DNA of 64,000 nucleotides. It comes from Nannocystaceae bacterium ST9. Lineage in GTDB: Bacteria; Myxococcota_A; Polyangia; Nannocystales; Nannocystaceae. Shown here piece by piece: positions 6,327 through 62,742 of the stretch. The position numbers and the translations under genes were made by a program. Location of the stretch: NCBI GenBank assembly GCA_048320885.1, contig JBLWFJ010000001.1, positions 1,285,642 through 1,349,641 on the forward strand, read 5' to 3'. Position 1 is the first letter of the stretch. Every line of letters begins with the position of its first letter. The notes under the pieces were generated by a model that searched no databases, was not told the DNA's origin, and worked only from the letters and a program-made list of their open reading frames with translations.

Positions 6327-6362
6327 CATCACCCACGCGCGCCTCGGCTCGCGTGGGTGATG
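6327..6362. terminator. perfect 13 bp stem-loop between convergent genes (putative bidirectional terminator)
   Basis: catcacccacgcg-cgcctcggct-cgcgtgggtgatg, between the stop of 5637..6290 (+) and the stop of 6376..7275 (-). Confidence 0.45.
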
Positions 6363-6375
6363 TGTTCGTGCGAGC

Positions 6376-7275
6376 TCAGCCCGGCACGACGGCGGTCGGG
6401 CAGCGGGTCGAGCCGGCCAGCTCGCTGCTGACGCTGGCCAGGAACACCCGCTCGATCGGGCCGAGCTTGCGCGAGCCGGTCACCAGCACGGCGGCCTTCC
6501 GCTCTTCGACTAGGTGCGCGAGGTTGCGGGCCGGATCGCCGAGGAACACGTGCTCTTGCGCGCCCTCGAGCCCCTGCGCCTTCACCCACGCGTGCAGCTT
6601 GGCGCCCGCCCGCGCGCGAGCCTGATCGAGCATGACCTCGAAGGTCTCGGCCGGGATGTACGAGACCCCCCAGTTGAACGCCTCGGTCCCGTGCGCGACC
6701 AAGATCGGACGATCGAGGCGTGCAGCCAGCCGCTTGGCGAACTCCGCCGCCGCGACGCAGTGCTCGTCGAGGTTGGTGGCCAGCACGACCGGGCCGGAGT
6801 CGAGCGCCGGCTCGTCGGGCTCGGACCCGAAGTCGGGCGGCACCACGATCACCGGGACCGGCAGCTTGCGCAGCACTCGGCGACTGATCTCGCCCAGCCG
6901 GATCAGCGGATCCTCGTCGCGCCGCGCTCGACGACCGACGATCAACGCGGTGAAGTGCTCGCGCACGGCGGTCTCGACCAACCCGAGCTCGGGGTGATCG
7001 TCCTCGATCACCCGCACCTCGACGCGGCCGCTCGCGCCGGCACGCTCGAGCAGCAGCGCGACGTCGGACGCGACCTGCTCGGACATCGCCGCGGTCTGCT
7101 CTTGGCTGAGCAGCGGATGCAGTCGCGTCGACTCGGGCATCACGTGCACGCCGACGAGCGCGTCGTCGGGGCCGGCCAAGTGGCCCGCGAAGCGCAGCGC
7201 CCCGAGGTGATCCTCCGACAGCTCGACGCCCACGCCCCAGATCTGGTTGCCGGTCTCGCTCATGGGCCCGAGCAT
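6376..7275 (-). CDS. tandem universal stress protein (two USP domains)
   Basis: 299 aa; two USP-like halves, each with a G-rich ATP-loop-like segment (VLVAHGTE..., VLVTGSRKLGPIERVFLASVSSELAGSTRCPTAVVP). Confidence 0.7.
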   Translation of the reverse strand: MLGPMSETGNQIWGVGVELSEDHLGALRFAGHLAGPDDALVGVHVMPESTRLHPLLSQEQTAAMSEQVASDVALLLERAGASGRVEVRVIEDDHPELGLVETAVREHFTALIVGRRARRDEDPLIRLGEISRRVLRKLPVPVIVVPPDFGSEPDEPALDSGPVVLATNLDEHCVAAAEFAKRLAARLDRPILVAHGTEAFNWGVSYIPAETFEVMLDQARARAGAKLHAWVKAQGLEGAQEHVFLGDPARNLAHLVEERKAAVLVTGSRKLGPIERVFLASVSSELAGSTRCPTAVVPG

Positions 7276-7338
7276 CGAACGCGAGCGAGAGCACGTCCAG
7301 GGCCTCGCGCGCGCAACGAGTTCGCGGGCGGCAGAGCC

Positions 7339-7661
7339 ATGACGAATGGGTTACGGCGCCGCACGCCGCCTCGTCGCGCGCGGCTCCTGCCCCTCGCCCT
7401 GCCCTTCGCCGCGTGTCCGGCCTTCCCCGACCCGGTCGACTTCTCGGCTCACGGGACTCGCGGCGTGCTCGAGGTCGAGACGCTCGACGGGCTCTCGCCA
7501 CCGGCTCACGCGGGTCGACGCCGACGACATCGCGCCTCATCGAGCCGTCGGATTCGAACTGCCCCGTGATGCTCGATGGCAATCACGCGATCGTCGATTG
7601 CACCGATCCCCTCGGGTCGATTCGCATGTCGATTGTCGACTCCGGCGAAATCCGCGGTTGA
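7339..7661 (+). pseudogene. degenerate, frameshifted remnant of a paralogue of lipoprotein 17809..18666
   Basis: GVLEVETLDGLS (frame 1) matches SVLEVETLDGFS, and VMLDGNHAIVDCTDPLG (frame 2) matches VMLDGNHALVGGTPGTD of the 17809..18666 product; the roughly 110 aa between the motifs is missing. Confidence 0.5.
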
Positions 7662-8338
7662 TTCGACGTTCGTCTGGCGATTGGAATCGAGCGTAACGAG
7701 CATTTCCAATCGTCACGGCGCGCGCGAGCGAAGGCGCGAAATCGATGGCGCGCAAGTTTGTCGCCGACATCGAGACCATTGACAAACGTAATTGAACCCA
7801 CTGATTCTCGACGTCGAATGCGCGGCGACGGCCGCTATCGCTCGCTAAATCCCCCGCACGGGGCGCATCTTCGGAACCGACTCGTCCTCGCCCGCGACCT
7901 GCGGGTTCGAGTCGAAGAAATTGTCTCGTTTCGAAGAACAACCTCGCGCGATGTCGAGCTGATCCGTCGATCTTTGCTCGATAGCAAGCAGCTTTCGAGT
8001 CGAGAGCGCTCAACCATGTTCCAAACGATAATTCGTACCAAAAGCCAGGTCGTTCTCTCGGGCTCACATCCTTCCAAATCGAACTACACACCTGAAATTT
8101 CTGCTGTTTTATCCTTTCTCTCGCAAAAACTGCGGGTACTGATGACCCCGCTCGTGCGGCTCGGCCTGCCCGCTGTCCGGTCGGGGTGGTACTCAAGCCC
8201 CCGTCGCCAGGTGCTTTTGCACGTATCCACGAACGTCCTCGATGACCACGAATCAATCCACCCGCCCATTCGCCGGGATTTTCCCGGCCACGATTTCACC
8301 TTCGAATATTTTCACCGAATGCCACGAGGTGGCGTCGC
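7580..8338. other. AT-rich segment (roughly 45-50% GC) without convincing CDS
   Basis: Visibly AT-richer than the flanks; only short, low-GC3 ORFs. Confidence 0.5.
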
Positions 8339-8896
8339 ATGAGTAGCCGCATCGACACGCGAATCGTGCGACTCTTCGACCCGAACTGGAAGCCGTCCAT
8401 GATCGGCGCTCGTCGGTCCGTCCATCTCGGCGACACCGCGCTTGCCGACACCGCCGAAGTGATCGCCAGCCAGCCTCGGATCGACCCGCTGCTCTCGCTC
8501 GCGCGCCACCGCCAGCTCGAGGCCCTGCGCTCCTCGGGCTGTCGAACCCTCGATTGTGGCTGGGCCCGCGAGGTCGCGCGCGAGGTCGCTCGAATGAGCG
8601 AATGCGATTGGCATCGAGGCCCGGCCCTCGCCGTTCGCCTGCACGAGCCCGGCGGCTCCGTGGTGTGGACCCGGTTGCTCCGAATCACGAGCGATCGGGT
8701 CTGGCTGAGCCCGCAAGCCGGGCTCGAGCTCGGAGTCCGCGTCGTGATCGAGCGCGACGACCCCGTCAGCGACACCCACATCGAGATCGCCGGCCATTGC
8801 AGCGAATCCACGCGCGAATCCATCATCGTATGTACCGACGGTCATTCGACGATCGTCCGGCCAGCGATCGCAATCTGCGACCATCGATTCGAATGA
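8339..8896 (+). CDS. hypothetical protein
   Basis: 185 aa ORF with moderate GC3, next to the AT-rich segment; no recognised motifs. Confidence 0.35.
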   Translation: MSSRIDTRIVRLFDPNWKPSMIGARRSVHLGDTALADTAEVIASQPRIDPLLSLARHRQLEALRSSGCRTLDCGWAREVAREVARMSECDWHRGPALAVRLHEPGGSVVWTRLLRITSDRVWLSPQAGLELGVRVVIERDDPVSDTHIEIAGHCSESTRESIIVCTDGHSTIVRPAIAICDHRFE

Positions 8897-8929
8897 TTTA
8901 ATTTCATCCTCCGTGCTCGACATTTTCGA

Positions 8930-11041
8930 ATGACGGCGCATAGAGATTTCGTCGAACCAATGCATCCCTGCCGACGGGTGGCCCGTCTCGGGATCCTTCT
9001 CGTCACCACGAAAGCGAACAGAAATACCGTGTCCAACCGCAACCGCAACGTCGTCGTTCTCCACACCTCCCGCGCCTTGGTGCCCTTGTGCGTACTCGGC
9101 CTGTTTGGCTGCACCTTCACCACGCCGAGCTCGAGCGGCACCGACATTGGGACCGAAGACGGAGATTCGACCTCCGACGACACCTCCGACGAACACGACC
9201 CCGACGAGCACCACACCCCGGACCACGGCGAGGACGAGACCGAGACGACCGAGACCGGCGAGGGCGAGACCGGGACCAGCGAGACCGGCGAGCCCGAGGG
9301 CGAATGCGGCGACGGCCAGGTCGACGCGGGCGAAGATTGTGACGATGGCAATTCGATCAATGCCGATTCCTGCACCAACGTCTGCGAATCCTCGGCCTGC
9401 GGCGACGGCCACGTGCAGCCGGGCGAGCAGTGCGACTCGGGTGCCGACAACGGCCCCGGCCAAGCTTGCACCGACGCCTGTCTGGTCAACGTGTGTGGCG
9501 ACGCCGATGCCGGGCCCGGTGAGGCCTGCGACGACGGCAACCCGGTCGACGACGACGGCTGCACCAACCTGTGCGCGCTGCCGACCTGCGGCGACGGTCT
9601 CCTGCAGGCGGGCGAAGATTGTGACGACGGCAACCCGGTCGACGACGACGATTGCCTGAGTACCTGCGTGACCCCGAGCTGCGGCGACGGCATCTTGTAC
9701 TACGCCCAAGAGGCGTGTGACCAAGGCGCCCTGAACTCCGACCAGGCCGAGTGCACGGCCGCCTGCCTCTACAACGTGTGCGGCGATGGCCTGCCCTGGA
9801 GCGACGTCGAGGCCTGTGACCTCGGGGTCGAGAACGGCCCCGACGCGGCCTGCCTCGAGGGCTGCACGCTGGCCGCTTGCGGCGACGGCTTCGTCGGGCC
9901 CGAGGAGGCCTGCGACGACGGCAACCTCGACGAGAGCGACGGATGCAGCGCGCTGTGCCAGCTCGAGAGCTGTGGCGACGGCATCGTGCAGTCGGGCGAG
10001 CAGTGCGACGACGCCGACCTCGACGAGACCGACGAGTGCACGACGCACTGCGCGATCCCGATCTGTGGCGACGGCCTGCTCCTGCCCGAGGTCGAGGAGT
10101 GCGACGAAGGCCTGTTCAACGCCAACGAGGGCGGGTGCACGCTCGGCTGCACGCTCGCGAAGTGCGGCGACGGCCTGGTCGAGCTCGACGTCGAGCAATG
10201 CGACCTCGGGCCGGCCAACGCCGACGATGGCGTGTGCAAGACGGATTGCAGCGATCAGGCCTGTGGCGACGGCCTGGTCGGCCCCGGCGAGAGCTGCGAC
10301 GACGGCAACAAGATCAACGACGACGACTGCACCAACGCCTGCGCGCCGGCGAGCTGCGGCGACGACATCCTGCAAGCCGGCGAGGCCTGCGACGACGGCA
10401 ACGCGATCGACGACGACGCCTGCACCAACGCCTGCACCGCGGCGGCCTGCGGCGACGGCATCCTGCAGGCCGGCGAGGCTTGCGACGAGGGGCTCGCCAA
10501 CGCCGACGACGCCCAGTGCACGGCCAGCTGCGTGCTCGCGACTTGCGGCGACGGCCTGGTCTGGGCGGTCGGCGACGAGCAGTGCGACGACGGCAACGCG
10601 ATCGAGGACGACGCCTGCACCAACGCCTGCAGCGAGCCGGCGTGTGGCGACGGCGTCCTGCAAGTCGGCGAAGAATGCGACGACGGCGGGTCGATCGACG
10701 AGGCCTGCTCCGACACCTGCAGCCTGCCGGCCAGCGAGTGCGCCGGGATCACGCTCGACCCCGGCAACGGCGTGCTGGGCTGCTGGTACTCGGCGGGCGA
10801 GCTCGACCTGAGCTGCGACCAGGTCTGTGCCCCGCACGGCGGGTTCGATGCCCTGGCCTCGCAGCACCTCGGCAACCCGCTCGGCACGCTGGTCTGGCCG
10901 GACAAGACCGACGGCGGCGTCTGGGAGTCGATCGAGTGCTCGTCGACCGACAACGACACCAACTGGGGCGCGAACGGTCAGGCCCCGGACTCGACCTGGC
11001 ACCATTCGGCCTGCTACGTCCATTGCGCGTGCGTGCAATGA
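8930..11041 (+). CDS. secreted lipoprotein with myxobacterial Cys-rich repeats (TIGR02232/DUF4215 type)
   Basis: Signal plus lipobox-like LCVLGLFGC; acidic S/T/D/E linker; roughly 18 repeats of about 30 aa built on CGDG...QxGExCDDGN...DDxCTxxC; distinct Cys-rich C-terminal domain. The true start may be downstream of the first ATG. Confidence 0.8.
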   Translation: MTAHRDFVEPMHPCRRVARLGILLVTTKANRNTVSNRNRNVVVLHTSRALVPLCVLGLFGCTFTTPSSSGTDIGTEDGDSTSDDTSDEHDPDEHHTPDHGEDETETTETGEGETGTSETGEPEGECGDGQVDAGEDCDDGNSINADSCTNVCESSACGDGHVQPGEQCDSGADNGPGQACTDACLVNVCGDADAGPGEACDDGNPVDDDGCTNLCALPTCGDGLLQAGEDCDDGNPVDDDDCLSTCVTPSCGDGILYYAQEACDQGALNSDQAECTAACLYNVCGDGLPWSDVEACDLGVENGPDAACLEGCTLAACGDGFVGPEEACDDGNLDESDGCSALCQLESCGDGIVQSGEQCDDADLDETDECTTHCAIPICGDGLLLPEVEECDEGLFNANEGGCTLGCTLAKCGDGLVELDVEQCDLGPANADDGVCKTDCSDQACGDGLVGPGESCDDGNKINDDDCTNACAPASCGDDILQAGEACDDGNAIDDDACTNACTAAACGDGILQAGEACDEGLANADDAQCTASCVLATCGDGLVWAVGDEQCDDGNAIEDDACTNACSEPACGDGVLQVGEECDDGGSIDEACSDTCSLPASECAGITLDPGNGVLGCWYSAGELDLSCDQVCAPHGGFDALASQHLGNPLGTLVWPDKTDGGVWESIECSSTDNDTNWGANGQAPDSTWHHSACYVHCACVQ

Positions 11042-11143
11042 GTCGATGAATCCGAGCCGGGCCGCTCCCCCTCGGCCCGGCTCGGATTCACGCTCCGATT
11101 CCGATTCCAGCCACCGATTCTAGACCCCCCGAAAGAAACGACG

Positions 11144-25487: not shown

Positions 25488-25968
25488 GTGCCGATCCCCG
25501 CCGAGTTCCAGGCCGAGAGCCTCTACGCGCCCGACCAGTGGTACATCCACGACCTGCTCGAGGTCGAGCGCGACCCCAGCGAGGGCCTCGATCGCGTCGT
25601 CGCGCTCTGCGACACCGCCACGCTCGCCGACCACCCGATCGTCGCCGCCCAGCGCGAGTGGCCCGGCCAACCCAAGCACGTGCCCGGGATCGTCATGGTC
25701 CAGATCACCGGCACGCTCGGCAACCTGCACGCCGTCTGCGTGATGGGCCTGAAGATGAGAGGGCTGGGTCGGGTTCGGGACCAACATCCACGAGGCCAGG
25801 TTCTCGGGGATCGGCCGGATCGGGCCGGGGTTGGTCTGCGAGCTGAAGATCGAGCGAATGCGGCGGATCAAGGGCCAGGTGTTCGGGACCTACGCGTTTC
25901 GCTTCGAGCAGGAGGGGAAGGTGATCTATCGGTCGCGGCAGACCGCGAGCTGGTCGCGGGTCGGGTAG
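25488..25968 (+). pseudogene. FabZ/FabA-like hotdog dehydratase with apparent +1 frameshift (around 25751-25770)
   Basis: N-part in frame 0 (...DHPIVAAQREWPGQPKHVPGIVMVQITGTLGNLHAVCVMGLKM); C-part in frame 1 (GFGTNIHEARFSGIGRIGPGLVCELKIERMRRIKGQVFGTYAFRFEQEGKVIY...), matching the FabZ C-terminus; join point in the run gagggctgg. Confidence 0.55.
25803..25917 (+). repeat. direct repeat copy A (3' end of the FabZ-like gene)
   Basis: About 95% identical to 28505..28616; the two copies bracket the HK/REC-Mrr cassette. Confidence 0.8.
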
Positions 25969-25976
25969 GGGCCGGG

Positions 25977-26897
25977 CTACTTGGCGCCTGCGCTGGTCTC
26001 GATCGCGCGTTGATGCAGCGTCTTGAGCACTTCGTTGCGCGCGGGGTCGTCCACCAAGCGCTGGAGCTCGTCGGGCCCGATCGGAACGACGACGATGTTC
26101 TCCCGGCGACGCGTCGCCAGCGTGGCCGCGAACCCCTTGGTGAATCCATTGGCCGCGATGAAGAAACCGAGCGTGGCCCGTCCGAAGCGGCGCTCGAGTT
26201 TGTTGGTGAAGCGATCGAGCTCATTGGGGCCGACGCTGCCGCTCCAGTTCTTGCACTCCACCAAGAAGTATTGACTCTCCTTGGTCCAGAAGGGATCGAT
26301 GGACTCGTTGCGAACGACGAGATCGAACTCCTCGTCGAGGCCGCGTCGGCGGGTGGCGACGACGAAGCCCGGCGCCGCCCGAAAGATCGACTCGACGAGA
26401 TCCTCCAAGATCCGCCCTTTCTCGGCGCTCGTGGTCGCCCCACGAACTTGGGCCTGCAACTCGCTCAGGCGCGTGGAGACCTCGTCTTCCGCGGAGGTCA
26501 GCCATCGCTCGCGGGCCAACTCGATCGCGTTTCGGACCTTGGCCCGCAGCAGCGTCTTGAAGTTTTCGGTCTTCTCGACGTAATCGTAGACTCCGACCTT
26601 GAACGCACGCTCGATCGTCTCGGGGCTCGCGTAGCCGGTGACGATGATGATCTTGGCGCCCGGGCTCCTTCGTTCGACCTCCTCGATCAATTCGAGGCCC
26701 TCGTCGCCGCCCGCGGATCCATGCAAGCGTTGATCGAGCAGCACGACCGACCAATCGCCTTGGTCGAGCGCGTCCACGGCTTGCTGATAGCTCGACACTC
26801 CCGTCACGCTCAGACCGTCGAGACCCAGCATTTCGCCATAGATGGCGAGGATGTTCTTTTCGTCGTCGACGGCGAGGATCTTGTCGTAGCGATTCAC
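25977..26897 (-). CDS. response regulator: REC domain fused to Mrr-like restriction endonuclease (PD-(D/E)xK) domain
   Basis: REC (ILAVDDEKNIL...VVLLDQRL...KIIIVTGY); C-terminal EDLVESIFRA...EEFDLVV...FLVECKNWSGSVGPNELDRF, typical Mrr_cat D...E.K core; lower GC than the surroundings. Confidence 0.7.
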   Translation of the reverse strand: MNRYDKILAVDDEKNILAIYGEMLGLDGLSVTGVSSYQQAVDALDQGDWSVVLLDQRLHGSAGGDEGLELIEEVERRSPGAKIIIVTGYASPETIERAFKVGVYDYVEKTENFKTLLRAKVRNAIELARERWLTSAEDEVSTRLSELQAQVRGATTSAEKGRILEDLVESIFRAAPGFVVATRRRGLDEEFDLVVRNESIDPFWTKESQYFLVECKNWSGSVGPNELDRFTNKLERRFGRATLGFFIAANGFTKGFAATLATRRRENIVVVPIGPDELQRLVDDPARNEVLKTLHQRAIETSAGAK

Positions 26898-28453
26898 TGT
26901 CCCTCCTGGATCGCGGGCAACTCTATGTGAAACCGAGCACCACCGTCAACCGACCCCTCGCACGTCACCTTGCCACCGAAGTCGCGTTCGACGACCTCTC
27001 GGACCAAGGCCAAGCCATGGCCGGCTCCATCGGGCCGACCCGAGACTCCGTGGTCGAAGATTCGCTCGCGGAGCGGCTCTGGGACGCCCGGACCGTCGTC
27101 CTCGACCGTCAGATGAATCGCGTCGGGATCCCGAGCATCGACCACGATCGAGATCTGGACATCGGGCCCTCCACTCTGCATCGCGTTGCGCAGAATGTTG
27201 ACGATCGCCAGCACCGCGCGGCCGCGATGCCCGCGGGTCTTGGGGCCCGCTGCGCCCGGCACCGTCTCGACGCGAATGCTGCCCCGAAACTCCGGAGACA
27301 GCGCGCGACGGGCCTCTTCGATCACGTCCAGCACCGCGAATGACGTGATGGCATCGTCGATCGGCGAGCTCATTCGTACGGATGTCTCGACAAAGCGATA
27401 GAGGCGGGTGATGCCGCCCTCGATCTGCTCGCGCGGCATGGCGAGTGATTCTTCCAGATCGGCCTGCGCGACGGCCATCCAGACCTTGTCGAGCGCATGC
27501 CGGATGGGAAGCAGCGCGTTTCGGACTTCGTGCGCGACCAGTCGCATCTGTCGCATCGCCGCGGCCGTCGATTGATTCTCTCGATCGACGTCGCCGACCG
27601 AGAGAATCACTTCGCTGCGGTCATCTTCCATTTGAGCCAACGCCGCGGATCGAAAGGAGGCGAGGACGTCGGAGTTGACGGCGGCGAACAGATCATTGCC
27701 GAGCGCCGTCAACTCGTACCCGATCCGGTGCTCCCCGTATTCTCCCTCATGCAGCACTCCCAATGCGGACCAACGGGCGATCCCGGACCAACCCAACAAC
27801 GTACGCTCTTCGTCATTGTCGATGGTGAACGTGTATCCTGCGCGCTGGAGGATCAGAGATACATACGCCGTACCGACACACCAGGCATCGCCGAGCCCCC
27901 CTCCGCGAACACCCTCCAACGCGATCAACCATCGCACTCGATCGATCCCGCGCAAGCTCAGAAAGGTCTTGCCGGAGAGGCTCACGAGCGGGCCGCCGAG
28001 TCGCACGCCGACCAGCCCGAGGTGCTCGCAATACCGAGAGACGATCTGCCACGGGTATTTGCCCGACGTGGCTTGCACATCTCGTGTTACCCTTCGTGCC
28101 AGCTCTTCCAGTCGTACGCGCCTCGGCCATTCGATCGAGGAGAACGAGGGATCGTCGATATCCACCGCGATGGCGATGGCCGCGTCGATGTGGTCGCGGC
28201 GCGACTGCCACGACAGCCGAGCCGCAAAGCCTGCCAACAACTCCCAGTGCATTTCGTCGACGAAGTGCGAAAGGACGTGTGTTCCCCATTCGCTAAACCT
28301 TGCGGCCGGGGCCGCCTCGCGCTCGAACAGCGACACCAGGGTCGCCTCATGATGCGAAAGGTCTGGCGGCCTGTCCGCCTCCACCGCCTCCGTCGCCTCG
28401 ATGCTCTGCACTCGGCGCAGGTGGTGCTCGATCTGCGCGACGAAGTCGGACAC
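26894..28453 (-). CDS. cytoplasmic sensor histidine kinase with uncharacterised roughly 300 aa N-terminal domain
   Basis: GTG start; H-box VAHEVRNALLPI; HATPase_c GHGLALVREVVERDFGG; no TM segments; stop overlaps the RR ATG (ATGA). Confidence 0.75.
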   Translation of the reverse strand: MSDFVAQIEHHLRRVQSIEATEAVEADRPPDLSHHEATLVSLFEREAAPAARFSEWGTHVLSHFVDEMHWELLAGFAARLSWQSRRDHIDAAIAIAVDIDDPSFSSIEWPRRVRLEELARRVTRDVQATSGKYPWQIVSRYCEHLGLVGVRLGGPLVSLSGKTFLSLRGIDRVRWLIALEGVRGGGLGDAWCVGTAYVSLILQRAGYTFTIDNDEERTLLGWSGIARWSALGVLHEGEYGEHRIGYELTALGNDLFAAVNSDVLASFRSAALAQMEDDRSEVILSVGDVDRENQSTAAAMRQMRLVAHEVRNALLPIRHALDKVWMAVAQADLEESLAMPREQIEGGITRLYRFVETSVRMSSPIDDAITSFAVLDVIEEARRALSPEFRGSIRVETVPGAAGPKTRGHRGRAVLAIVNILRNAMQSGGPDVQISIVVDARDPDAIHLTVEDDGPGVPEPLRERIFDHGVSGRPDGAGHGLALVREVVERDFGGKVTCEGSVDGGARFHIELPAIQEGQ

Positions 28454-28504
28454 TTCGACATCCTACCACGAGCCGCGCTCGCGCCACTACCACCAGCCCG
28501 GCTC

Positions 28505-28616
28505 TCGGTATCGGCCGGATCGGGCCGGGTTGGTCTGCGAGCTGAAGATCGGGCGGATGCGGACGATCAAGGGGCAGGTGTTCGGGACCTACGCGTTTCG
28601 CTTCGAGCAGGAGGGG
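28505..28616 (+). repeat. direct repeat copy B (orphan FabZ-like 3'-end fragment)
   Basis: Encodes ...VCELKIGRMRTIKGQVFGTYAFRFEQEG then diverges; about 95% identical to copy A. Confidence 0.8.
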
Positions 28617-28784
28617 TCGAGGGTCAGGGCGAGGGGTCGGGGAAGTAGAGGCGGCGCGAGGGGTCGTGCTCCGGCCAGCGCAGCACGAGGGTCTGCGGGT
28701 CGGCCCATTTCCGGAGCTTCTCGTATTGATCGGGGAAGGCGTGAATCGGCGTTCGGATCTGCGGATCGCCGGTGACGAAGGCTA

Positions 28785-28850
28785 CGAGTTCGTGAAGGTC
28801 GGCGTCGAGGTCACCCCACCTTCGGCCCAAGCCTCGATGTGATGCGTGCT
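28785..28850 (-). pseudogene. short remnant of an HNH-endonuclease gene
   Basis: Encodes STHHIEAWAEGGVTS (compare HAHHVEAWAEGGETS in 28997..30283) and is followed at once by a stop; about 75% DNA identity over roughly 45 bp. Confidence 0.3.
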
Positions 28851-28996
28851 CGAGGCCTGCGCGACGCTGACCAACGCGTCGGCACGCTCGGCCGGCAGGG
28901 CGCTCGGGTCGAGTGGCTCGGACGGCGAGGCGGATCCGCGCCTGAGCCGACCAGGCGAGCATCCACCCAAGAGGGCCCGAGATGCGCCCTGCGCAA

Positions 28997-37690: not shown

Positions 37691-39133
37691 TCAGGCCGGC
37701 ACGCGGGTCAGGATGTCCGCGATCGCCACGGTCAGCTTCTTGACGTAGGGCACGTGCAGGAATTCGTTGGGCCCGTGCGCGTTCGACTTGGGCCCGAGCA
37801 CGCCGGTGATCAAGAACTGCGCGTTGGGGAACTTGGACCCGAGCATGTTCATGAAGGGGATGGTCCCGCCTTCGCCGAGCCAGCCGGCGTCACGACCGAA
37901 GGCCGCGTTCGAAGCCGCGTCGGCGGCCTTGGCCAGCCAGGGTGCGGTCGCGGGCGCGTTCCATCCGCTCGACGACCAGTCGGGCTCGAAGCGAACCTTG
38001 GCGCCGTAGGGCGGGTCGTGCTCGAGCAGCTGCTGGAGCGCGCGGGCGGCCTGATCGCCGTCGACGGTCGGAGGGATCCGCAGCGAGAGCTTGAGCGAGG
38101 TCTTGGGTCGCAGCACGTTGCCGCCCGAGGCGATCGCCGGCAGGCCGTCGGCGCCGGTCACCGAGAGCGCCGGTCGCCAGGTCCGGTTGAGGATCGCCTC
38201 GACCGGATCGGTGGTCGTCGGCTGCATGTGCAGGTGCGCGTCGGGGCCATGGTTGCAGCCGACCCAGGGGAACTGGTTCCAGACTGCGTCGCCGAGGATC
38301 CGCCCGGCGGCCTCGGCCTGGCGCTGGCGCTCGTCGGGGATCCGGGCGTGGAAGGCCTCGTTCAGCACGCGGCCGCTCGCCGAGTCGTCGACGCGATCGA
38401 GCAGCCGGCGGGCGATCCGAAACGAGCTGGGCACCAGGCCGCTCGCGGCCCCCGAGTGCACGCCTTCGCTGAGGACCTCGACGGTCAGCACGCCGCCGAC
38501 CAGGCCGCGCAGCGAGGTGGTGACCCAGAGCTGATCGTAGTTGCCACAGCCCGAGTCGAGCCCGGCGACCAGCTGCACGTCGCCGAAGCGAGGCGCGAGT
38601 AGATCGAGGTAGTCGGGCAGATCGGGGCTGCCCGACTCTTCGCACGACTCGATGATCCCGACGCAGCGCGGCCGCGCGATGCCCTGGCGATCGAGCGCGG
38701 CGATGCTGGTCAGCGCCGCATACACGGCGTAGCCGTCGTCGGCGGCACCGCGACCGTAGAGCTTGCCGTCCTCGAGCTTGGGGATCCACGGGCCGAGGTC
38801 GGCTCGCCAACCCTCCATCTCGGGCTGCTTGTCGAGGTGACCGTAGAAGAGCACGGTCTTGTCGTTGCCGAGCGTGCCGGTCGCGGGCGCGTCGAAGAAC
38901 AAACAGGGCGTTCGGCCCTCCATCGCGATCAGCTCGATCGTGATGCCGGCGATGGCCTGCGCGCGACACCAGGCGTGGGCGTCGCGGACGACGGTTTGCA
39001 GGTGCCCATGCGCGGCCCAGCTCGCGTCGAACGAGGGCGACTTGGCGGGCACCTTGACGTAGTCGATCAGGCGAGGGACGAGCTCTTCGTCCCAGCGACG
39101 ATCGACGAATGGTTGCAGGTCGGCGACGTTCAT
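37691..39133 (-). CDS. M20-family metallopeptidase/dipeptidase
   Basis: M20 metal-binding context (FYGHLDKQP, GRGAADDG, HSG). Confidence 0.8.
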   Translation of the reverse strand: MNVADLQPFVDRRWDEELVPRLIDYVKVPAKSPSFDASWAAHGHLQTVVRDAHAWCRAQAIAGITIELIAMEGRTPCLFFDAPATGTLGNDKTVLFYGHLDKQPEMEGWRADLGPWIPKLEDGKLYGRGAADDGYAVYAALTSIAALDRQGIARPRCVGIIESCEESGSPDLPDYLDLLAPRFGDVQLVAGLDSGCGNYDQLWVTTSLRGLVGGVLTVEVLSEGVHSGAASGLVPSSFRIARRLLDRVDDSASGRVLNEAFHARIPDERQRQAEAAGRILGDAVWNQFPWVGCNHGPDAHLHMQPTTTDPVEAILNRTWRPALSVTGADGLPAIASGGNVLRPKTSLKLSLRIPPTVDGDQAARALQQLLEHDPPYGAKVRFEPDWSSSGWNAPATAPWLAKAADAASNAAFGRDAGWLGEGGTIPFMNMLGSKFPNAQFLITGVLGPKSNAHGPNEFLHVPYVKKLTVAIADILTRVPA

Positions 39134-39264
39134 CGAGCGCGGTCAGGATAGCGAGCGTTTCCCTCGGGGTGTGCGCGTCGACGAGCTCTCGATCGCTGCG
39201 CACCGACCTGCACGGACCCGCGTGGACCTGCACGCCGCGAGCATGACGCCTCGCCCACGAACGT

Positions 39265-40599
39265 GTGCGAGGCTGCACGATGCTTCGAAGCTCGACGTGG
39301 CCCTCCTCGCGCTGGCTCGCCGCGCTCGCAGCAACTTCGGTCCTCGCGTGCTCCGGCCCGCTCGCGGCAGCCCCGCCCGAACTCGACGAGCCCGCGGCGA
39401 CTCCGATCGCGCTCGACCACGATCCCGCGATCGATCGGGCGATCGAGCAGCGGCTCGCGGCGATCTACGCGGAGCTCGACGCGCTCGCCGGCGTCGAGGT
39501 CGAGGTCGCCGCGGGCGTGGTCCACCTGCGCGGGCGCGTGCTCTCGCTCGGAGCCGCCGACGAAGCCGAGGCGATCGCGGGCCGGATCGAGGGCGTCGCG
39601 GCGATCACCAACGCGATCGAACAAGAGGTCGGGGTCGGCCGCCGCCTGCAGCCGATCATCGACGGCTTCCTCACCCGCGCGGGCGCCTGGCTGACCTACG
39701 TGCCGCTGGTCTTGATCGCCGCGAGCGTGGTCGTGTCGGCCTGGCTGTTCGCGCGGCTGCTCGCGCGCCGGAGTCGGCAGAGCACGGCCGAGCGAACCTT
39801 CGTCCGCGAGCTGCTCGGCCAGCTGTTCCGATTCGGCATCGTCGCGCTGGCGCTGGCCCTCGCGCTCGAGGCCCTCGGCGCCACGGCGCTGCTCGGCGCG
39901 CTGCTCGGGACCGCCGGCGTGATCGGCATCGCGCTCGGGCTCGCGCTCAAGGACACCGGCGAGAACTACATCGCCTCGATCCTGCTCAGCATTCGCCAGC
40001 CCTTCGCGCCGCACGACTACGTGAAGATCGGCGACTCCGAAGGCGCGGTCGTCCGGCTGACCTCGCGCGCGACCGTGCTGCTCAGCTTGGCCGGCAACCA
40101 CATCCGGATCCCCAACTCGACGGTGTTTCGCGCGACGATCACCAACTACACCCGCAACCCCGAGCGACGCTTCGAGTTCATGCTCGGCGTCGGGTTCGAG
40201 AGCGAGCTGCGCAAGGTCCAGGAGCTGGCGATCGCGACGATCGCGGCGATCCCCGGCGTGCTGGTCAAGCCGGCCCCGAGCTGCTTCGTCGAGGAGTTCG
40301 GCGCCTCGGCGATGACGATCAGCGTCGGCGGCTGGATCGATCAGCGCAACGCCGATTGGTTCAAGGTCAACTCCGAGGCCCGCCGGCTGATCAAGGCCGC
40401 GTTCGATCGCGCGGGCATCGACGTGCCCGAGCCGATCGTCCGGGTCCGCACGATCCACGACGATCCGGTCGAGCTGGCGAGCGAGCCGGCACAGCCGCTC
40501 GATGTCTCGCCCGACGACCACATCGTCCGGCAGATCGATCGTCAGCGAGCCGGGCTCGGCGAGCAGGACCTGCTGCGCGAGGATGGTCGGCCCGAGTAG
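39265..40599 (+). CDS. mechanosensitive channel, MscS family, with periplasmic N-domain
   Basis: TM helices plus conserved MscS beta-domain (IRIPNSTVFRATITNYTRNP). Confidence 0.8.
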   Translation: MRGCTMLRSSTWPSSRWLAALAATSVLACSGPLAAAPPELDEPAATPIALDHDPAIDRAIEQRLAAIYAELDALAGVEVEVAAGVVHLRGRVLSLGAADEAEAIAGRIEGVAAITNAIEQEVGVGRRLQPIIDGFLTRAGAWLTYVPLVLIAASVVVSAWLFARLLARRSRQSTAERTFVRELLGQLFRFGIVALALALALEALGATALLGALLGTAGVIGIALGLALKDTGENYIASILLSIRQPFAPHDYVKIGDSEGAVVRLTSRATVLLSLAGNHIRIPNSTVFRATITNYTRNPERRFEFMLGVGFESELRKVQELAIATIAAIPGVLVKPAPSCFVEEFGASAMTISVGGWIDQRNADWFKVNSEARRLIKAAFDRAGIDVPEPIVRVRTIHDDPVELASEPAQPLDVSPDDHIVRQIDRQRAGLGEQDLLREDGRPE

Positions 40600-40693
40600 T
40601 CCCCTCCGCTCGGACGGCGCGCGCGAACGGGGCGTCGCGCATGGGCGCTGCATGTATGTTGCGCTCGAGAATCGCAGTTGCTATCAGCATACG

Positions 40694-41182
40694 ATGACAA
40701 AGACCCGTCTCCGAATTCTGATCACCGGCCTGTTGGCCTTTTTGTGCTCCACGGCGCATGCGGATGATCCGACCCATGTTGCCATGACCAGCTTGCCGAC
40801 TTGTGACAACAGCTACGATGTCGTCGGAACCGTCCACGACCGCGTGGAGAGCGAGTCCATCGACGGCGATGTGTTCACCGACCTCGATCCGTTCGAATGT
40901 GAACTCGCCAGCGCCAATCAGACCGTGGACTTCAACTTCAATGGCGCTTCGACCGATTCCGTGACCGGCTGCACGTACACCCTCGTGCGGCGCGACAAGG
41001 CCACGGGTGCCCCTCTCGGTGCGACCGAGACCCTCGATTGCGTCGACAACGAGATCACCTTCGAGGTCATCGCCACACCCTTGTCGAGTGACCCCGATTG
41101 TAGTGGGCTCTCTGTCATCGAAGTCGACCCAAAGGTCCACGTGACCTGGGGCAAGGGCGGCTCGACCGTCTGCCCAAACTGA
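40694..41182 (+). CDS. small secreted Cys-containing hypothetical protein (lower GC)
   Basis: 162 aa, signal peptide MTKTRLRILITGLLAFLCSTAHA; about 55% GC against about 70% around it. Confidence 0.5.
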   Translation: MTKTRLRILITGLLAFLCSTAHADDPTHVAMTSLPTCDNSYDVVGTVHDRVESESIDGDVFTDLDPFECELASANQTVDFNFNGASTDSVTGCTYTLVRRDKATGAPLGATETLDCVDNEITFEVIATPLSSDPDCSGLSVIEVDPKVHVTWGKGGSTVCPN

Positions 41183-41242
41183 TCCGGCAGTGTACTTCGC
41201 TCGACTCGGCATGCTTCGGGCCGAAAACGCGGCGATGAGCAA

Positions 41243-41280
41243 GAAGGGTTGCATGCATGCGCGTGCATGCAGCCCTCTTC
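41243..41280. terminator. GC-rich palindromic stem-loop, copy A of a duplicated terminator-like element
   Basis: gaagggttgcatgcatgcgcgtgcatgcagccctcttc, followed by acgagctcgc; just 3' of 40694..41182. Confidence 0.5.
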
Positions 41281-41769
41281 ACGAGCTCGCCGGCGAGCTG
41301 TTCGAGCGGTCGCCAGCGAGCAGGCCACGACCCAGTGGAGGGCCGACGCTCAGCGCTCGTAGGCGCTCGAGCTTGCTCGCGCCCCATCATCCCAAGCTAG
41401 CCAGCGATCGTTCATCGCCGACCCAGCCCGCCGCGCGAGCTGACCCTGAAAACGCGGTCGACGAAGTAAATTGTGCGGGCGACGTGGATCGAATCGCCGG
41501 CTCCGTCGTCGACCACGCGATGACGATCAAACGATCCGGGCGTCTGCGGGCCGCGTCCAGATGATGGCGACATCGACGGTCACGCGCGAACTTTTTTGGT
41601 TCGGACCACCACGAGACCTCGAGCGCGCGGACAGCTACGCCGACGATCCAGAATCATGCATCGATCGATCGCAACGTCTCATCCTCGAGCCAGATCGGCA
41701 CGACTCAGTGATCCAACCAAGGGTGTACGTCGTGTCGAAATGCACCCTCGAACCGAAAGAAAGAAAATC

Positions 41770-42009
41770 ATGCGAATCAAGAAGCTCACGATCGCCGCGG
41801 CGTTGTTCATCGCCGCCGCAGCCGGCACCCCGAGCCCAGCGCAGGCGCTGCCGCCCCCGGGCGACTATCTGATCGTCTTCGCGTACTACTCCGACGCAGA
41901 GCACAACAACGTGATCGGTCAGACGTGGTCGGGTTGTGGTCAACCCGCGGGTCGTTGGGGCACCACGAGCGGCCCCTACCACGAACTCTTCTTCACGCCT
42001 TGCTCGTGA
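41770..42009 (+). CDS. small secreted protein (79 aa) with two Cys
   Basis: Signal peptide MRIKKLTIAAALFIAAAAGTPSPAQA; AT-rich RBS region; followed by palindrome copy B. Confidence 0.5.
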   Translation: MRIKKLTIAAALFIAAAAGTPSPAQALPPPGDYLIVFAYYSDAEHNNVIGQTWSGCGQPAGRWGTTSGPYHELFFTPCS

Positions 42010-42120
42010 GGCTCCCGCGCGAGCCGTCGCTCTGCCGCCGTGATGTGGTTCGACGGTTCGCGCATCGAGCGGGAGCAGGAGCGGGCGAGCGGCAAAACTC
42101 ACCGAACCAAGACTGCGCGA

Positions 42121-42152
42121 GAAGGGCTGCATGCGCGTGCATGCAGCCCTTC
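42121..42152. terminator. perfect 14 bp stem-loop, copy B (bidirectional terminator between the small ORF and metK)
   Basis: gaagggctgcatgc-gcgt-gcatgcagcccttc, followed by the same ttcacgagctcgc tail as copy A. Confidence 0.55.
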
Positions 42153-42173
42153 TTCACGAGCTCGCGCTCGAGC

Positions 42174-43313
42174 TCAGCGAGCGCTGCGGAGCGCGTCGAC
42201 CTTGGGCGTGGTCTCCCACGAGAACCCGTCGCGGCCGAAGTGCCCGTAGGCCGCGGTGGCCTTGTAGATCGGCTTGAGCAGATCGAGCTCCTGGATCAGC
42301 CGAGCCGGGCGGGCGTCGAAGTGCTCGCGGACCAGCCGGGCGAGCTTCTCGTCGTCGAACTTGCCGGTGCCGAAGCTCTCGACCCGGATGCTGACCGGCT
42401 CGGCCACGCCGATCGCGTAGGCGAGCTGGACCTCGCAGCGCTCGCAGAGCGAGGCGGCGACCAGGTGCTTGGCGATGTAGCGGGCGTAGTAGGCCGCGCT
42501 GCGATCGACCTTCGAGGGATCCTTGCCCGAGAACGCGCCGCCGCCGTGGCGACCCATGCCGCCGTAGGTGTCGACGATGATCTTGCGGCCGGTCAGGCCC
42601 GAGTCGCCCATCGGTCCGCCGATCACGAAGCGACCGGTCGGGTTGATGTGGTAGGTCGGGTTCTTGAGCAGCTCGGCGGGGATCATCGGCTTGATGACCT
42701 CCTCGATCACGTACTCGCGCAGGCGACCCTGCTCGACCGACTCGGAGTGCTGCGTCGAGACGACCACGGTGTCGACCGCGACCGGCTTGCCGTCCTCGTA
42801 CACGATCGAGACCTGGCTCTTGCCGTCGGGCCGCAGGAAGCTGCTGGGATCCTGGCGGCGGACCGCGGTCAGCCGCTCGGTCAGCTTGTGCGACAGGTAG
42901 ATCGGCATCGGCATCAGCGCGTCGGTCTCGCGGCACGCGTAGCCGAACATCATGCCCTGGTCGCCGGCGCCCTGCTCACCGTCGGTCCGGTCGACGCCCT
43001 GGTTGATGTCGGGGCTCTGGGCCTCGATCGCTACCAGCACGCCACACGAGTTGCCGTCGAAGCCCATGTCGGAGCTGACGTAGCCGATCTCGGTGACCGT
43101 ATCGCGGACGATCTTCGGCATGTTGACGTAGGTCGAGGTCGTGACCTCGCCCGCCAGCACGACGAAGCCCGTCTTCACCAGCGTCTCGCAGGCGACGCGG
43201 CAGCGCGGGTCCTCGGCGATGATCGCATCGAGGATCGCGTCGCTGATCTTGTCGCACATCTTGTCGGGGTGACCTTCGGTCACGGATTCGCTGGTAAACA
43301 GACTGCGTGGCAT
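42174..43313 (-). CDS. metK: S-adenosylmethionine synthetase
   Basis: [29 protein letters not shown]...; GGGAFSGKD; AGGAGA RBS 9 nt upstream. Confidence 0.9.
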
Positions 43314-43435
43314 CGAATCTTGGTCTCCTGAGCGGCCGCGAGGATAGGAGCCACCGTGGGGGGGCGTCAACGCGAGCAAGCCCTGCCGCGACGAGGTGGC
43401 TCACGCGCTGGCGACCCGTGAATCGGACCCGTGAA

Positions 43436-44647
43436 TCAGGGCTCGGTGATCCGCAGCGAGACGGAGAAGATCGCCGCCGCTTCGTCGCGGGGCAGCTCGA
43501 CGAAGAGCAGCGCCTCGACGCCCTGTGCGGCCCACGACGGCAATTGCCCCTCGCCGACGATCAGCGTGTGAGGGCCGGCTTCGAGGTCCGGCGGCGCGCA
43601 GCCCTGCGCGTGATCCGGCAAGCAGTCGGGCGCACGCAAGGCCAAGCCCACGCGAGGGTCGTCCGCGACGATCTCCAGCCGCGCCTGGGGAGAGATCTCC
43701 GCGCCCGCGGGCCAACGCAAGCGATGGACCCGCTCGGGCCGACGCCAACCCGTGCACGAATGAGCGTGAGCATCGCCGTGCGCTTCGCTGGTGTCGATCG
43801 CGAGCACGAGGGTCTCGCCCGGAGGCAGCAGCGCGAGCTCGCCCGGGTCGGCGCAGCTCTCGGCCTCGGGCCGACGACAGCGATCGACCGCGAGCTCGGC
43901 TTCGATCGCGGACAGGCAGAGCGTCCCGGTCTCGCAGCGACCGAGCCCCGCGTCGCAGCGCTCGCCTTCTTCGATCACCGCGCGCAAGGTCAGCTCGAGC
44001 TCGACCTCGAGCGGATCGAACACGCCGGGTGCGGGTGTCGGGGTCGCGAGCGCGGGGTCGTCGACCGCGGCTCCGATCGCGAGCAGCAGCTCGGTGCCGG
44101 GTCGGAGATCCTCGACCACGACCGGCAGCGCGTCGACGCAGGCGAGCAGACGATCGCGATCGAGCGCCTCGCTGGCGCAGCCGGCTTGCAGGGTCGCGAC
44201 GCGCGGGATCACCTGACCGCCGCGCGCGTGGATCCGAAGGTCGGCGCGGATCGGGACCTCGACGCGCACGAACCCGATCGGGCCGCCCTCGCCGAGCGCA
44301 CAGTCGAGGCCGATCGGCGGGACGTCGAAAGCGATCGTCTCGACCAGTGGACGCAGCGAGCCGCGCAGGGTCGCGGGCAGCCGGTGGATCGCCGCGTCGG
44401 TGCAGGTCGGCGTGAAGTCGGTCGGCAGCTCGTCGCCGGTGTCCGTCTCGCTGGTCTCGCTCTCGCCCGCGCCCGCGCGCAGGCTCGCCGGCGCGTCGCT
44501 CGTGCAGGCCGTCGCGAGCAAGAGCGCGAGCGAGACCAGCGAGGCGAGCGAACGACGACGCGGGAGCACCGAGCCGAGAGTAGCCTCGTTCGTGGTCGAA
44601 CCATGAAGATGTTCTGGGTCGCCGCGGTGATCGACGAATCGGCGCAC
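43436..44647 (-). CDS. hypothetical secreted/lipoprotein
   Basis: Signal plus Cys (LVSLALLLATAC); acidic linker SETSETDTGDE; Cys-containing C-domain. Confidence 0.6.
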   Translation of the reverse strand: MRRFVDHRGDPEHLHGSTTNEATLGSVLPRRRSLASLVSLALLLATACTSDAPASLRAGAGESETSETDTGDELPTDFTPTCTDAAIHRLPATLRGSLRPLVETIAFDVPPIGLDCALGEGGPIGFVRVEVPIRADLRIHARGGQVIPRVATLQAGCASEALDRDRLLACVDALPVVVEDLRPGTELLLAIGAAVDDPALATPTPAPGVFDPLEVELELTLRAVIEEGERCDAGLGRCETGTLCLSAIEAELAVDRCRRPEAESCADPGELALLPPGETLVLAIDTSEAHGDAHAHSCTGWRRPERVHRLRWPAGAEISPQARLEIVADDPRVGLALRAPDCLPDHAQGCAPPDLEAGPHTLIVGEGQLPSWAAQGVEALLFVELPRDEAAAIFSVSLRITEP

Positions 44648-44759
44648 TCGATTGGGCTCGCTGGAGATCCATGCGAATCATTGAACCGGCACGAATGCGT
44701 GATTGCGACCGGCATCCCTGCTGGTTACGCGTTCGGATCCCCCGCGATAGCGTCCGCGC

Positions 44760-45818
44760 GTGACCTCGAAGCCCCACGACGCGCTGTTCAAGACCGCGTT
44801 CGAGCTGCCCGAGAGCGCCGCCGACCTGGCGCGCCACAATCTTCCCGCGTCGGTCGCCGCCGCGATCCGCTGGTCGACGATGGAGCTCGCGCCCGGCTCC
44901 TTCATCGCGCCCTCGCTCGCCGACCACCACAGCGACCTGCTCTTTCGCGTCGAGACCGAGATTGGCGACGCCCTGATCTACCTGCTCTTCGAGCACCAGA
45001 GCACCAACGACCCCCGCATGCCCCTGCGAATGCTCGTGTACATGCTGCGGATCTGGGAGCGCCACGCCAAGGAGCACGAAGGCTCGCCGCTTCCGCCGAT
45101 CATTCCCTTGCTGATCTGCCACGCGACGAATGGCTGGACCTCGCCGCGAAGCTTCCACGAGCTCTTCCCGACCACGCTCGCCGCGGTCCCCGAGCTCGCG
45201 CAATTCGTGCCGAGCTTCACCCTGCTCGTCGACGATCTCACTCATGTGACCAACGACGAACTCGAGGCCCGCGCGCTCGCGGGCGTCGCCAAGCTCGCGC
45301 TGTGGCTGCTCCGTGACGGTCGCTTTGCCAACCAGATCCTGGCCAACTTGCCCGCATGGGCTCACGCCATCCGTGAGGCGATGCGCACGCCGAGCGGGAG
45401 GTCGGCCCTGCGTTCTCTGTTCAGCTACTTGGTGGAGGTCAACGAGGGGCTGACCTACGACCTGTTTCATGCCAAGCTCGAAGAACACGCCCCCGAAGCT
45501 GCACGGGAATTCATGACGATCGCAGACAAATTGCTCAACGAAGGTCACGCCAAGGGCCGCATCGAAGGCCGCAACGAGGGTCGCGTCGAAGGCCGCAACG
45601 AAGGTCGCGTCGAGGGTCGCGTCGAGGGTCGCGTCGAAGGTCGCGTCGAAGGTCGTGTCGAAGGTGCGGCGAGCGTGCTGAGCAAGCTGCTCGGGCTGAA
45701 GTTCGGCGAGCTGCCCGAGCCCTACCGAGCACGCCTCGCCCATGCGAGCCCCGACGAGCTCGACGCCTGGACCGACCGAGTGCTCACCGCGGCGACGCTC
45801 GAGCAAGTCTTCGCCTGA
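44760..45818 (+). CDS. Rpn-family recombination-promoting nuclease / putative transposase (YhgA-like, PD-(D/E)xK)
   Basis: N-terminal DALFKTAFELPESAADLARHNLPASV family signature; C-terminal EFMTIADKLLNEGHAKG followed by GR(I/V/N)EGR repeats as in Rpn C-termini. Confidence 0.7.
   Translation: MTSKPHDALFKTAFELPESAADLARHNLPASVAAAIRWSTMELAPGSFIAPSLADHHSDLLFRVETEIGDALIYLLFEHQSTNDPRMPLRMLVYMLRIWERHAKEHEGSPLPPIIPLLICHATNGWTSPRSFHELFPTTLAAVPELAQFVPSFTLLVDDLTHVTNDELEARALAGVAKLALWLLRDGRFANQILANLPAWAHAIREAMRTPSGRSALRSLFSYLVEVNEGLTYDLFHAKLEEHAPEAAREFMTIADKLLNEGHAKGRIEGRNEGRVEGRNEGRVEGRVEGRVEGRVEGRVEGAASVLSKLLGLKFGELPEPYRARLAHASPDELDAWTDRVLTAATLEQVFA
45555..45665 (+). repeat. 12 bp coding tandem repeat (ggtcgcgtcgaa-type, about 9 copies)
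   Basis: Encodes GRIEGRNEGRVEGRNEGRVEGRVEGRVEGRVEGRVEG inside the Rpn-like gene. Confidence 0.75.
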
Positions 45819-62681: not shown

Positions 62682-62742
62682 GCACCATCCCAGCCTGATC
62701 CGAAGGCGGACACGACGAGAGTCGTGCCCGCCTTCTCGCGTT

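Follow-up and report, generated by a model that had tools for sequence, protein, structure and literature searches.

A direct repeat of the metK 3′ end brackets a DUF6289-family gene and may mark an insertion at a putative terminator in Nannocystaceae bacterium ST9

The described systems to which the locus reported here comes closest are bidirectional intrinsic terminators, att-like target duplications, integron cassettes, and dispersed palindromic repeats. Families of the last kind, resembling repetitive extragenic palindromes (REP), bacterial interspersed mosaic elements (BIME), or miniature inverted-repeat transposable elements (MITE), are common in bacteria, and hairpins that lack a U-tract terminate transcription poorly in vitro with several RNA polymerases. 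In a 64-kb stretch (the window) of the genome of Nannocystaceae bacterium ST9, which has a guanine-plus-cytosine (GC) content of ∼70%, a palindromic element occurs as two copies that bracket a small gene of the DUF6289 family beside metK. We regard it as probable that the copy adjoining metK (copy 2) is the inherited metK terminator, that the other (copy 1) is a local duplicate, and that the DUF6289 module was inserted at the terminator.

On the forward strand, genes for a mechanosensitive channel (mscS), a 162-residue protein (p162), and a 79-residue protein (p79) are read toward the convergent metK, with copy 1 after p162, a 461-bp spacer before p79, and copy 2 after p79:

39265..40599, + strand: gene for a BON-domain MscS-family mechanosensitive channel (Pfam MS_channel_2nd, BON, and MS_channel_3rd; GC at third codon positions, GC3, 0.92)
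40694..41182, + strand: p162, gene for an exported 162-residue protein, export being predicted (NCBI ACNOYE_05595; three homologue clusters; GC 60%, GC3 0.77)
41236..41308, + strand: direct-repeat copy 1 (∼73 nt), apparently a paralogue of the metK 3′ end, with 82% identity to copy 2
41309..41769, no strand: featureless spacer of 461 bp upstream of the DUF6289 gene, without codon periodicity
41770..42009, + strand: p79, gene for a DUF6289-family protein, likewise predicted to be exported (Pfam PF19806; NCBI name 'DUF6289 family protein')
42114..42183, no strand: direct-repeat copy 2 (70 nt), the native metK 3′ end, orthologous to the hairpin that follows metK in the closest relative
42174..43313, − strand: metK, gene for S-adenosylmethionine synthetase, 379 residues from the ATG at 43313 (Pfam S-AdoMet_synt N, M, and C domains)

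The first-pass annotation of this locus had described a near-identical palindrome with a common tail behind each of the two small genes. Both palindromes are real and have an exact core of 23 nt (TGCATGCGCGTGCATGCAGCCCT) and an exact tail of 15 nt (TCTTCACGAGCTCGC) in common; they do not differ substantially on alignment, and only the term 'near-identical' is slightly generous for an identity of 44/52 (85%) over the length originally delimited. The hairpin of copy 1 (41245-41276) has 14 bp, including two G·U pairs, a GCGC loop, and a predicted stability of −24.4 kcal/mol on the + strand and a weaker −20.0 kcal/mol on the − strand. That of copy 2 (42120-42153) has 15 perfect base pairs, a GCGT loop, and a stability of −29.2 kcal/mol on either strand. 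Folding z-scores for the two copies range from −3.3 to −4.7. Relative to copy 2, copy 1 has an insertion of four nucleotides (ATGC), an indel of one, and a C>T change; the insertion re-registers the stem rather than breaking it, and the C>T change is tolerated as a G·U pair in the p162 sense only. Shuffled versions of the window never reproduced the 31-nt half plus tail.

The unit that the copies share is longer than first described, at ∼70 nt, and reaches into metK. Local alignment places it at 41236-41308 and 42114-42183 with 61 of 74 positions identical (82%), and extension to the left of 41236/42114 or past 41308/42183 into metK is not significant against shuffled sequences. Copy 2 takes in the hairpin and a 20-nt spacer and, within metK, the stop codon (42174-42176) and ∼7 terminal coding bases; a mini-hairpin lies in the spacer region (GAGCTCG-CGCT-CGAGCTC, 42158-42175). 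In copy 1, the hairpin and the common tail are joined by another small palindrome (AGCTCGCCGGCGAGCT) and by a remnant of the final metK codons and stop (GTTCGAGCG); the stop and coding bases read GCTCAGCGAGCG in copy 2 and have decayed to CTGTTCGAGCG in copy 1. Since the stop and final codons of metK are part of the repeat, copy 1 appears to have come from the 3′ end of that gene rather than from a unit belonging to p162. Copy 2 lies 20 nt past the metK stop and 110 nt past that of p79, and copy 1 lies 62 nt past the p162 stop.

Comparison with relatives suggests which of the two copies is the older. Among the relatives available, a 244-kb metagenome contig from JGI (L098), of which a 21-kb locus was compared, is the closest; its MetK is 95% identical to that of ST9 at the amino acid level, and the DNA is ∼83% identical. 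A hairpin located 18 nt past the metK stop in L098 (GAGGGCTGCATGC-TC-GCATGCGGCCCTC) is the same hairpin as copy 2 and is single-copy in the 21-kb locus. The differences between the two preserve pairing: an A>G change yields a U·G pair in the metK sense, and the base of the stem, as read from the sequence, is changed on both arms (AGAAGGG/CCCUUCU in copy 2 vs CGAGGG/CCCUCG in L098). The blastn alignment of L098 with the window runs through a conserved upstream gene and metK and ends at 42123, the distal edge of the hairpin. Past the hairpin, L098 carries a convergent gene for a 119-residue protein, a Ser/Thr kinase, and a YD-shell protein; no DUF6289, p162, or mscS gene lies beyond its metK hairpin. 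Since L098 has the same hairpin after metK without the small genes, copy 2 is best read as the inherited metK terminator hairpin, an assignment that rests on this orthology.

More distant relatives place other hairpins at this position. In three contigs with MetK 90% identical (L101, L102, and L104), the space between metK and a convergent gene is occupied by a different hairpin of 20 bp, and Plesiocystis pacifica (MetK 87% identical) has a canonical terminator with an A-tract, hairpin, and U-tract after metK that is unrelated in sequence; MetK homologues are 377–380 residues long. From these alignments, the metK terminator appears to be a recurrent synteny breakpoint in Nannocystaceae. On the other side of metK, the stretch that would correspond to a YhgA-like gene of the window is replaced in L098 (4795-8828) by genes for CHAT, a 222-residue protein, and Uma2, so that the metK neighbourhood is variable on both sides. 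A MetK search of GTDB genomes returned mostly distant taxa, and its lone Nannocystaceae match was incomplete and uninformative.

The single hairpin of L098 also bears on whether ST9 harbours a dispersed REP/BIME- or MITE-like palindromic family, two members of which would lie 875 bp apart by chance. The element has the look of such a family in being an intergenic palindrome with a conserved tail in two copies, but the unit includes coding sequence of metK, and copy 2 is orthologous to a hairpin that is single-copy in L098. Neither Smith-Waterman nor relaxed alignment found a third copy in the 64-kb window. A third, degenerate copy suspected by eye upstream of p162 (40600-40700) scored 14, which is background (mean 11.6, sd 3.2), and further alignment matches within the window that scored 21–25 fall inside coding regions and are attributable to chance. 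The exact core had no match in 185,579 species-representative genomes, JGI metagenomes, and viral contigs, the segment had none in plasmids or phages, and related GC-rich contigs from the genome, metagenome, and viral collections gave neither exact nor relaxed matches. A relaxed hairpin pattern recovered 10 metagenome contigs (L105–L114) from unrelated organisms of 44–66% GC, in which the core AGGGCTGCATGC...GCATGCAGCCCT is flanked by A- and T-tracts as in canonical terminators; judged by these flanks, the 10 hairpins appear to have evolved independently and to be convergent rather than homologous. On these counts, which cover the 64-kb window and the collections searched, we consider membership in a dispersed family decidedly unlikely.

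Between the two copies lies an insert of 805 bp (41309-42113; 63.9% GC) composed of the spacer and the DUF6289 gene. The spacer presumably holds the promoter of that gene. Its open reading frames (ORFs) had no Pfam match, the spacer gave no Rfam match and no similarity to any fetched locus, tblastn with 175 proteins uncovered no relic of MetK, DUF6289, or p162, and it folds no better than shuffled sequences (z = −0.58). The possibilities that the spacer is a pseudogene or an RNA were accordingly set aside. A direct repeat around an insert is the footprint of single-crossover (Campbell-type) or site-specific integration, and the DUF6289 module was thus probably inserted, most likely at the metK terminator beside an already resident p162. 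The process would have started from an arrangement in which p162 and metK converged on the hairpin. DNA would then have recombined into the metK terminator by a single crossover, leaving the target duplicated on both sides with the DUF6289 module between. In the resulting layout, copy 2, a perfect palindrome with an AGAA...UUCU base, would end metK transcripts and, in the opposite direction, DUF6289 transcripts, while copy 1, 62 nt behind p162, would stop transcription of p162 (and read-through from mscS) and insulate the DUF6289 gene. We infer the direction of the duplication and the mechanism of insertion; the repeat itself, its reach into metK, the orthology of copy 2, the stability of the hairpins, and the lack of further copies in the window are direct observations.

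Several points weigh against this reconstruction. The 805-bp insert contains no recombinase gene, relic of one, or other hallmark of a mobile element, and among the relatives found none has the 'empty' arrangement of p162, hairpin, and metK. Like the insert, p162 is low in GC, and the history of the locus may therefore involve more than one event. The copy count, which also leaves room for a repeat family, covers 64 kb of the 6.98-Mb ST9 genome. Finally, neither hairpin is followed by a U-tract, and a consensus terminator scan of 39000-44000 returned zero sites; instead of classical intrinsic terminators, the hairpins could be elements of 3′-end processing or stability. In a more specific variant of the insertion reading, a tiny, recombinase-less module made up of a DUF6289 gene and its upstream region alone would have been captured at the metK hairpin by an insertion directed at the terminator, with the repeat as its scar. 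The hairpin or 3′ end would itself have been the target, for example of single-strand hairpin recombination or of a nuclease acting in trans, such as the nearby YhgA/Rpn-like protein. We give this variant a very slim chance; if it were true, terminator hairpins would be hot spots for the gain of small secreted-protein genes in Nannocystaceae.

Whichever way copy 1 arose, both hairpins are putative 3′-end signals to which we ascribe terminator activity by their form and position. Both are stable, GC-rich stem-loops near a stop codon, as expected of intrinsic terminators. Copy 1 is the putative terminator of p162, and copy 2 is a putative bidirectional terminator shared by the convergent DUF6289 and metK genes. 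A strong hairpin lies 10–25 nt 3′ of the metK stop in four Nannocystaceae lineages, the only indirect support for termination; with the orthologue in L098, it agrees with the original description of the palindromes as terminator-like and of copy 2 as serving convergent metK. The only U-rich sequence is a UUCU(U) run at the base of the stem and partly within it. Six hairpins of at least 12 bp occur in the 64 kb, both copies included; the other four strong hairpins (12–18 bp) are

6327-6362: strong hairpin without a U-tract
11047-11090: strong hairpin without a U-tract
27573-27609: strong hairpin without a U-tract
62702-62735: strong hairpin without a U-tract

and three of these four lie 5–20 nt past stop codons. 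With six strong hairpins devoid of U-tracts and mostly placed after stops, such hairpins appear to be the usual 3′-end signal, and so the norm for 3′ ends in this 70% GC genome. The strong U-tract-less hairpins of the window would escape standard terminator finders.

The same six hairpins, together with the absence of canonical terminators from the consensus scan and the poor termination by U-tract-less hairpins in vitro, favour an alternative in which the hairpins are 3′ exonuclease barriers or processing sites that protect the mRNA 3′ end after Rho-dependent termination. The short UUCU(U) run at the stem base counts against it, as do the canonical U-tract terminators that relatives carry at the identical position behind metK and that suggest an equivalent function. 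Sequence alone cannot separate intrinsic termination from 3′-end protection; on balance, we consider a purely protective role unlikely and retain the reading of the hairpins as putative terminators.

Both small ORFs are genuine genes: they show codon periodicity, have NCBI entries (proteins of Nannocystaceae bacterium ST9 of the same lengths with 100% identity), and have conserved homologues. The p79 product matches the Pfam profile DUF6289 (PF19806) over positions 4–42 of 43 with 36.0 bits (E = 8.6e-9), above the gathering threshold of 27.3. By eye, its N terminus resembles a Sec-type signal peptide in which a basic n-region precedes a hydrophobic core and an AxA site; cleavage at about AQA|LPPPGDY would leave a predicted mature part of ∼53 residues with two Cys. 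Both residues (C56 and C78) are conserved without exception across 16 members of the family, in line with the original annotation of a signal peptide and two Cys. The family is small, a set of 1.8 billion proteins yielding 48 representative clusters with E ≤ 1e-3; members are 73–105 residues long and have a signal peptide and two invariant Cys. The best AlphaFold2 model of p79 is a four-stranded β-sheet with a predicted local distance difference test score (pLDDT) of ∼85 in the mature part, the other four models being poor. That model has no significant structural neighbour, and the PDB holds no sequence relative; p79 thus has no relative of known function by sequence or structure in these searches, and DUF6289 is not mentioned in the papers of the literature searched.

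The suggestion that the 79-residue protein might be bacteriocin-like found no support. A bacteriocin precursor or other precursor of a ribosomally synthesized and post-translationally modified peptide is not indicated, given the Sec signal with its AxA site, the neighbours (mscS, p162, and metK), and the lack of an NCBIfam match; the mature part, a folded β-sheet domain in the best model, also counts against it, and no modification, immunity, or export genes adjoin this DUF6289 member.

DUF6289 homologues in other contigs are 74–79% identical at the amino acid level. In L001 (6398-12196), the homologue stands in the order extracytoplasmic function (ECF) sigma factor–Ser/Thr kinase (STK)–DUF6289–HSP90, and in L011 (452-2535) the order is small Cys lipoprotein–DUF6289–<ECF–STK. 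The ECF and kinase genes beside DUF6289 may be meaningful, or they may be there simply because myxobacteria have so many kinases.

The p162 product likewise has a Sec-type N terminus by eye, made up of the same three elements as that of p79 and with AHA|DD as the AxA site, and the six Cys of its mature part are invariant in its family, in keeping with its first description as a secreted Cys protein. Its homologues form three clusters, 59–82% identical at the amino acid level, from soil and other metagenomes on Nannocystaceae-like contigs. It has no Pfam match, and its AlphaFold2 model (pLDDT 46) is unusable. By its conserved residues, we assign p162 to a small, unnamed six-cysteine family. A kinship with the small Cys proteins encoded upstream of DUF6289 in L010 and L011 was considered, and the proteins proved unrelated. 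In L094 (917-2362), a 212-residue gene upstream of the p162 homologue has a C-terminal motif in common with it (DPKINITHSPGSVTC vs DPKINVTYSPGSVTC); given this shared motif, the p162 family would occur as tandem paralogues in some genomes. No hairpin lies 3′ of mscS, and p162 may therefore be co-transcribed with it. A possible sigma-70-like promoter (TTGCGC-17 nt-TATCAG) at 40657-40693 ends 6 nt before the p162 ATG; it has 8/12 matches by eye and falls under the threshold of the promoter scan. There is no Shine-Dalgarno sequence at p162, which together with this candidate promoter would imply a leaderless or near-leaderless p162 mRNA.

There is no similarity between p162 and p79, and the two appear to be unrelated exported proteins, their export being predicted from the N termini. 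This bears directly on the proposal of the first-pass annotation that each small gene had been acquired or duplicated together with its own terminator, whether as an integron-like cassette or by tandem duplication of a cassette. The proposal had in its favour the copy of the element after each gene, the GC3 of both genes below that of their neighbours, and the varied genomic contexts of the homologues. With unrelated proteins, no unit of gene plus terminator has been duplicated; moreover, the repeat unit stems from the metK 3′ end, copy 2 is ancestral and occurs in L098 without either gene, and the element lies at unequal distances from the two stop codons (62 vs 110 nt). The attC core sites (RYYYAAC/GTTRRRY) are not conserved between the copies (GGGTTGCAT vs GGGCTGCAT), the GTTRRRY-type position reading GGGTTGC in one and GGGCTGC in the other. 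No integrase is encoded within ∼8 kb on either side, where the genes specify a peptidase, a regulator, bestrophin, MscS, MetK, a YhgA-like nuclease, and a UvrD/PD-(D/E)XK helicase. Homologues of p79 (L001–L011) and p162 (L092–L097) lie beside genes for ECF sigma factors, Ser/Thr kinases, HSP90, and CAP-domain proteins, without the element and without flanking direct repeats; they are followed by different hairpins, by none, or by convergent genes, and DNA similarity to these loci is confined to the coding regions. Instead of two cassettes, the layout shows a single 805-bp insert with a ∼70-bp direct repeat on its two sides. We find the cassette proposal barely credible and prefer the duplication of the metK 3′ end.

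The base composition of the locus is consistent with its first description in kind if not in degree. The segment 40650-42170 has 62.3% GC, not the ∼55% originally given, against a window mean of 69.5%; the profile is not uniform, and the segment falls in the lowest 0.9% of 1.5-kb windows. A value of 56% is reached in its first 300 nt only. GC3, a measure of codon-position periodicity, is 0.77 for p162 and 0.81 for p79 vs 0.91–0.93 in the adjoining housekeeping genes. The sole comparable low-GC stretches of the window are 6844-9560 (minimum 60.2%) and 25681-28861 (62.8%), the latter overlapping a response-regulator/Mrr_cat restriction-endonuclease-domain gene at 25977-26942. About 1.4 kb upstream of metK, a gene at 44751-45815 (+ strand) encodes a YhgA-like 'Transposase_31' protein, a recombination-promoting nuclease of the Rpn type with a PD-(D/E)XK fold (Pfam E = 2.9e-44).

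Taken together, the palindrome pair would be the native metK terminator and its local duplicate, an ordinary feature, and nothing in the sequence appears to point to a mobile cassette system or a bacteriocin. The result matters little beyond annotation, where it gives the true extent of the repeat, assigns the 79-residue gene to DUF6289, and removes the cassette and bacteriocin readings. The locus offers a modest but clean illustration of how a synteny breakpoint and the gain of a small gene can fall exactly at a terminator hairpin, and the strong U-tract-less hairpins that seem to serve as the usual 3′-end signal would be useful for terminator prediction in this 70% GC myxobacterial genome. 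What residual curiosity there is, and it is small, attaches to the target-duplication geometry at a terminator.

Set beside known systems, the locus resembles integron cassettes in its small ORFs, each followed by an imperfect palindrome, and departs from them in lacking conserved attC core sites, intI, and a dense promoterless array, in the 461-bp spacer before the second ORF, and in an element that is probably the native terminator of a core gene. Similar to REP, BIME, and MITE sequences, the element is an intergenic imperfect palindrome of 35–40 nt with a conserved flank at gene 3′ ends; unlike them, it is present as two adjacent copies only, with a unit that overlaps metK coding sequence and no family members in the 64-kb window or the collections searched. 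The parallel with att-like target duplications is that a ∼70-bp direct repeat that includes the 3′ end and stop of a housekeeping gene surrounds a lower-GC insert absent from the closest relative at this locus, whereas the insert is just 805 bp, carries no integrase, excisionase, mobility gene, or relic, and has repeats that are only 82% identical. Bidirectional intrinsic terminators are matched by the perfect GC-rich palindrome between convergent metK and DUF6289 genes, by a stem base that, A-rich on its 5′ side and U-containing on its 3′ side, reads alike on both strands, and by the hairpins that relatives carry in this place, one of which is canonical and has both an A-tract and a U-tract; the difference is that no run of at least five U follows the stem here, which presumably likens the ST9 hairpins to the U-tract-less 'I-shaped' hairpins described for high-GC Actinobacteria. 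The inserted gene itself departs in nothing from its family: p79 is a typical DUF6289 protein in its signal peptide, its YYSD-like strand, its GQxWxGCG motif, and its C-terminal Cys.

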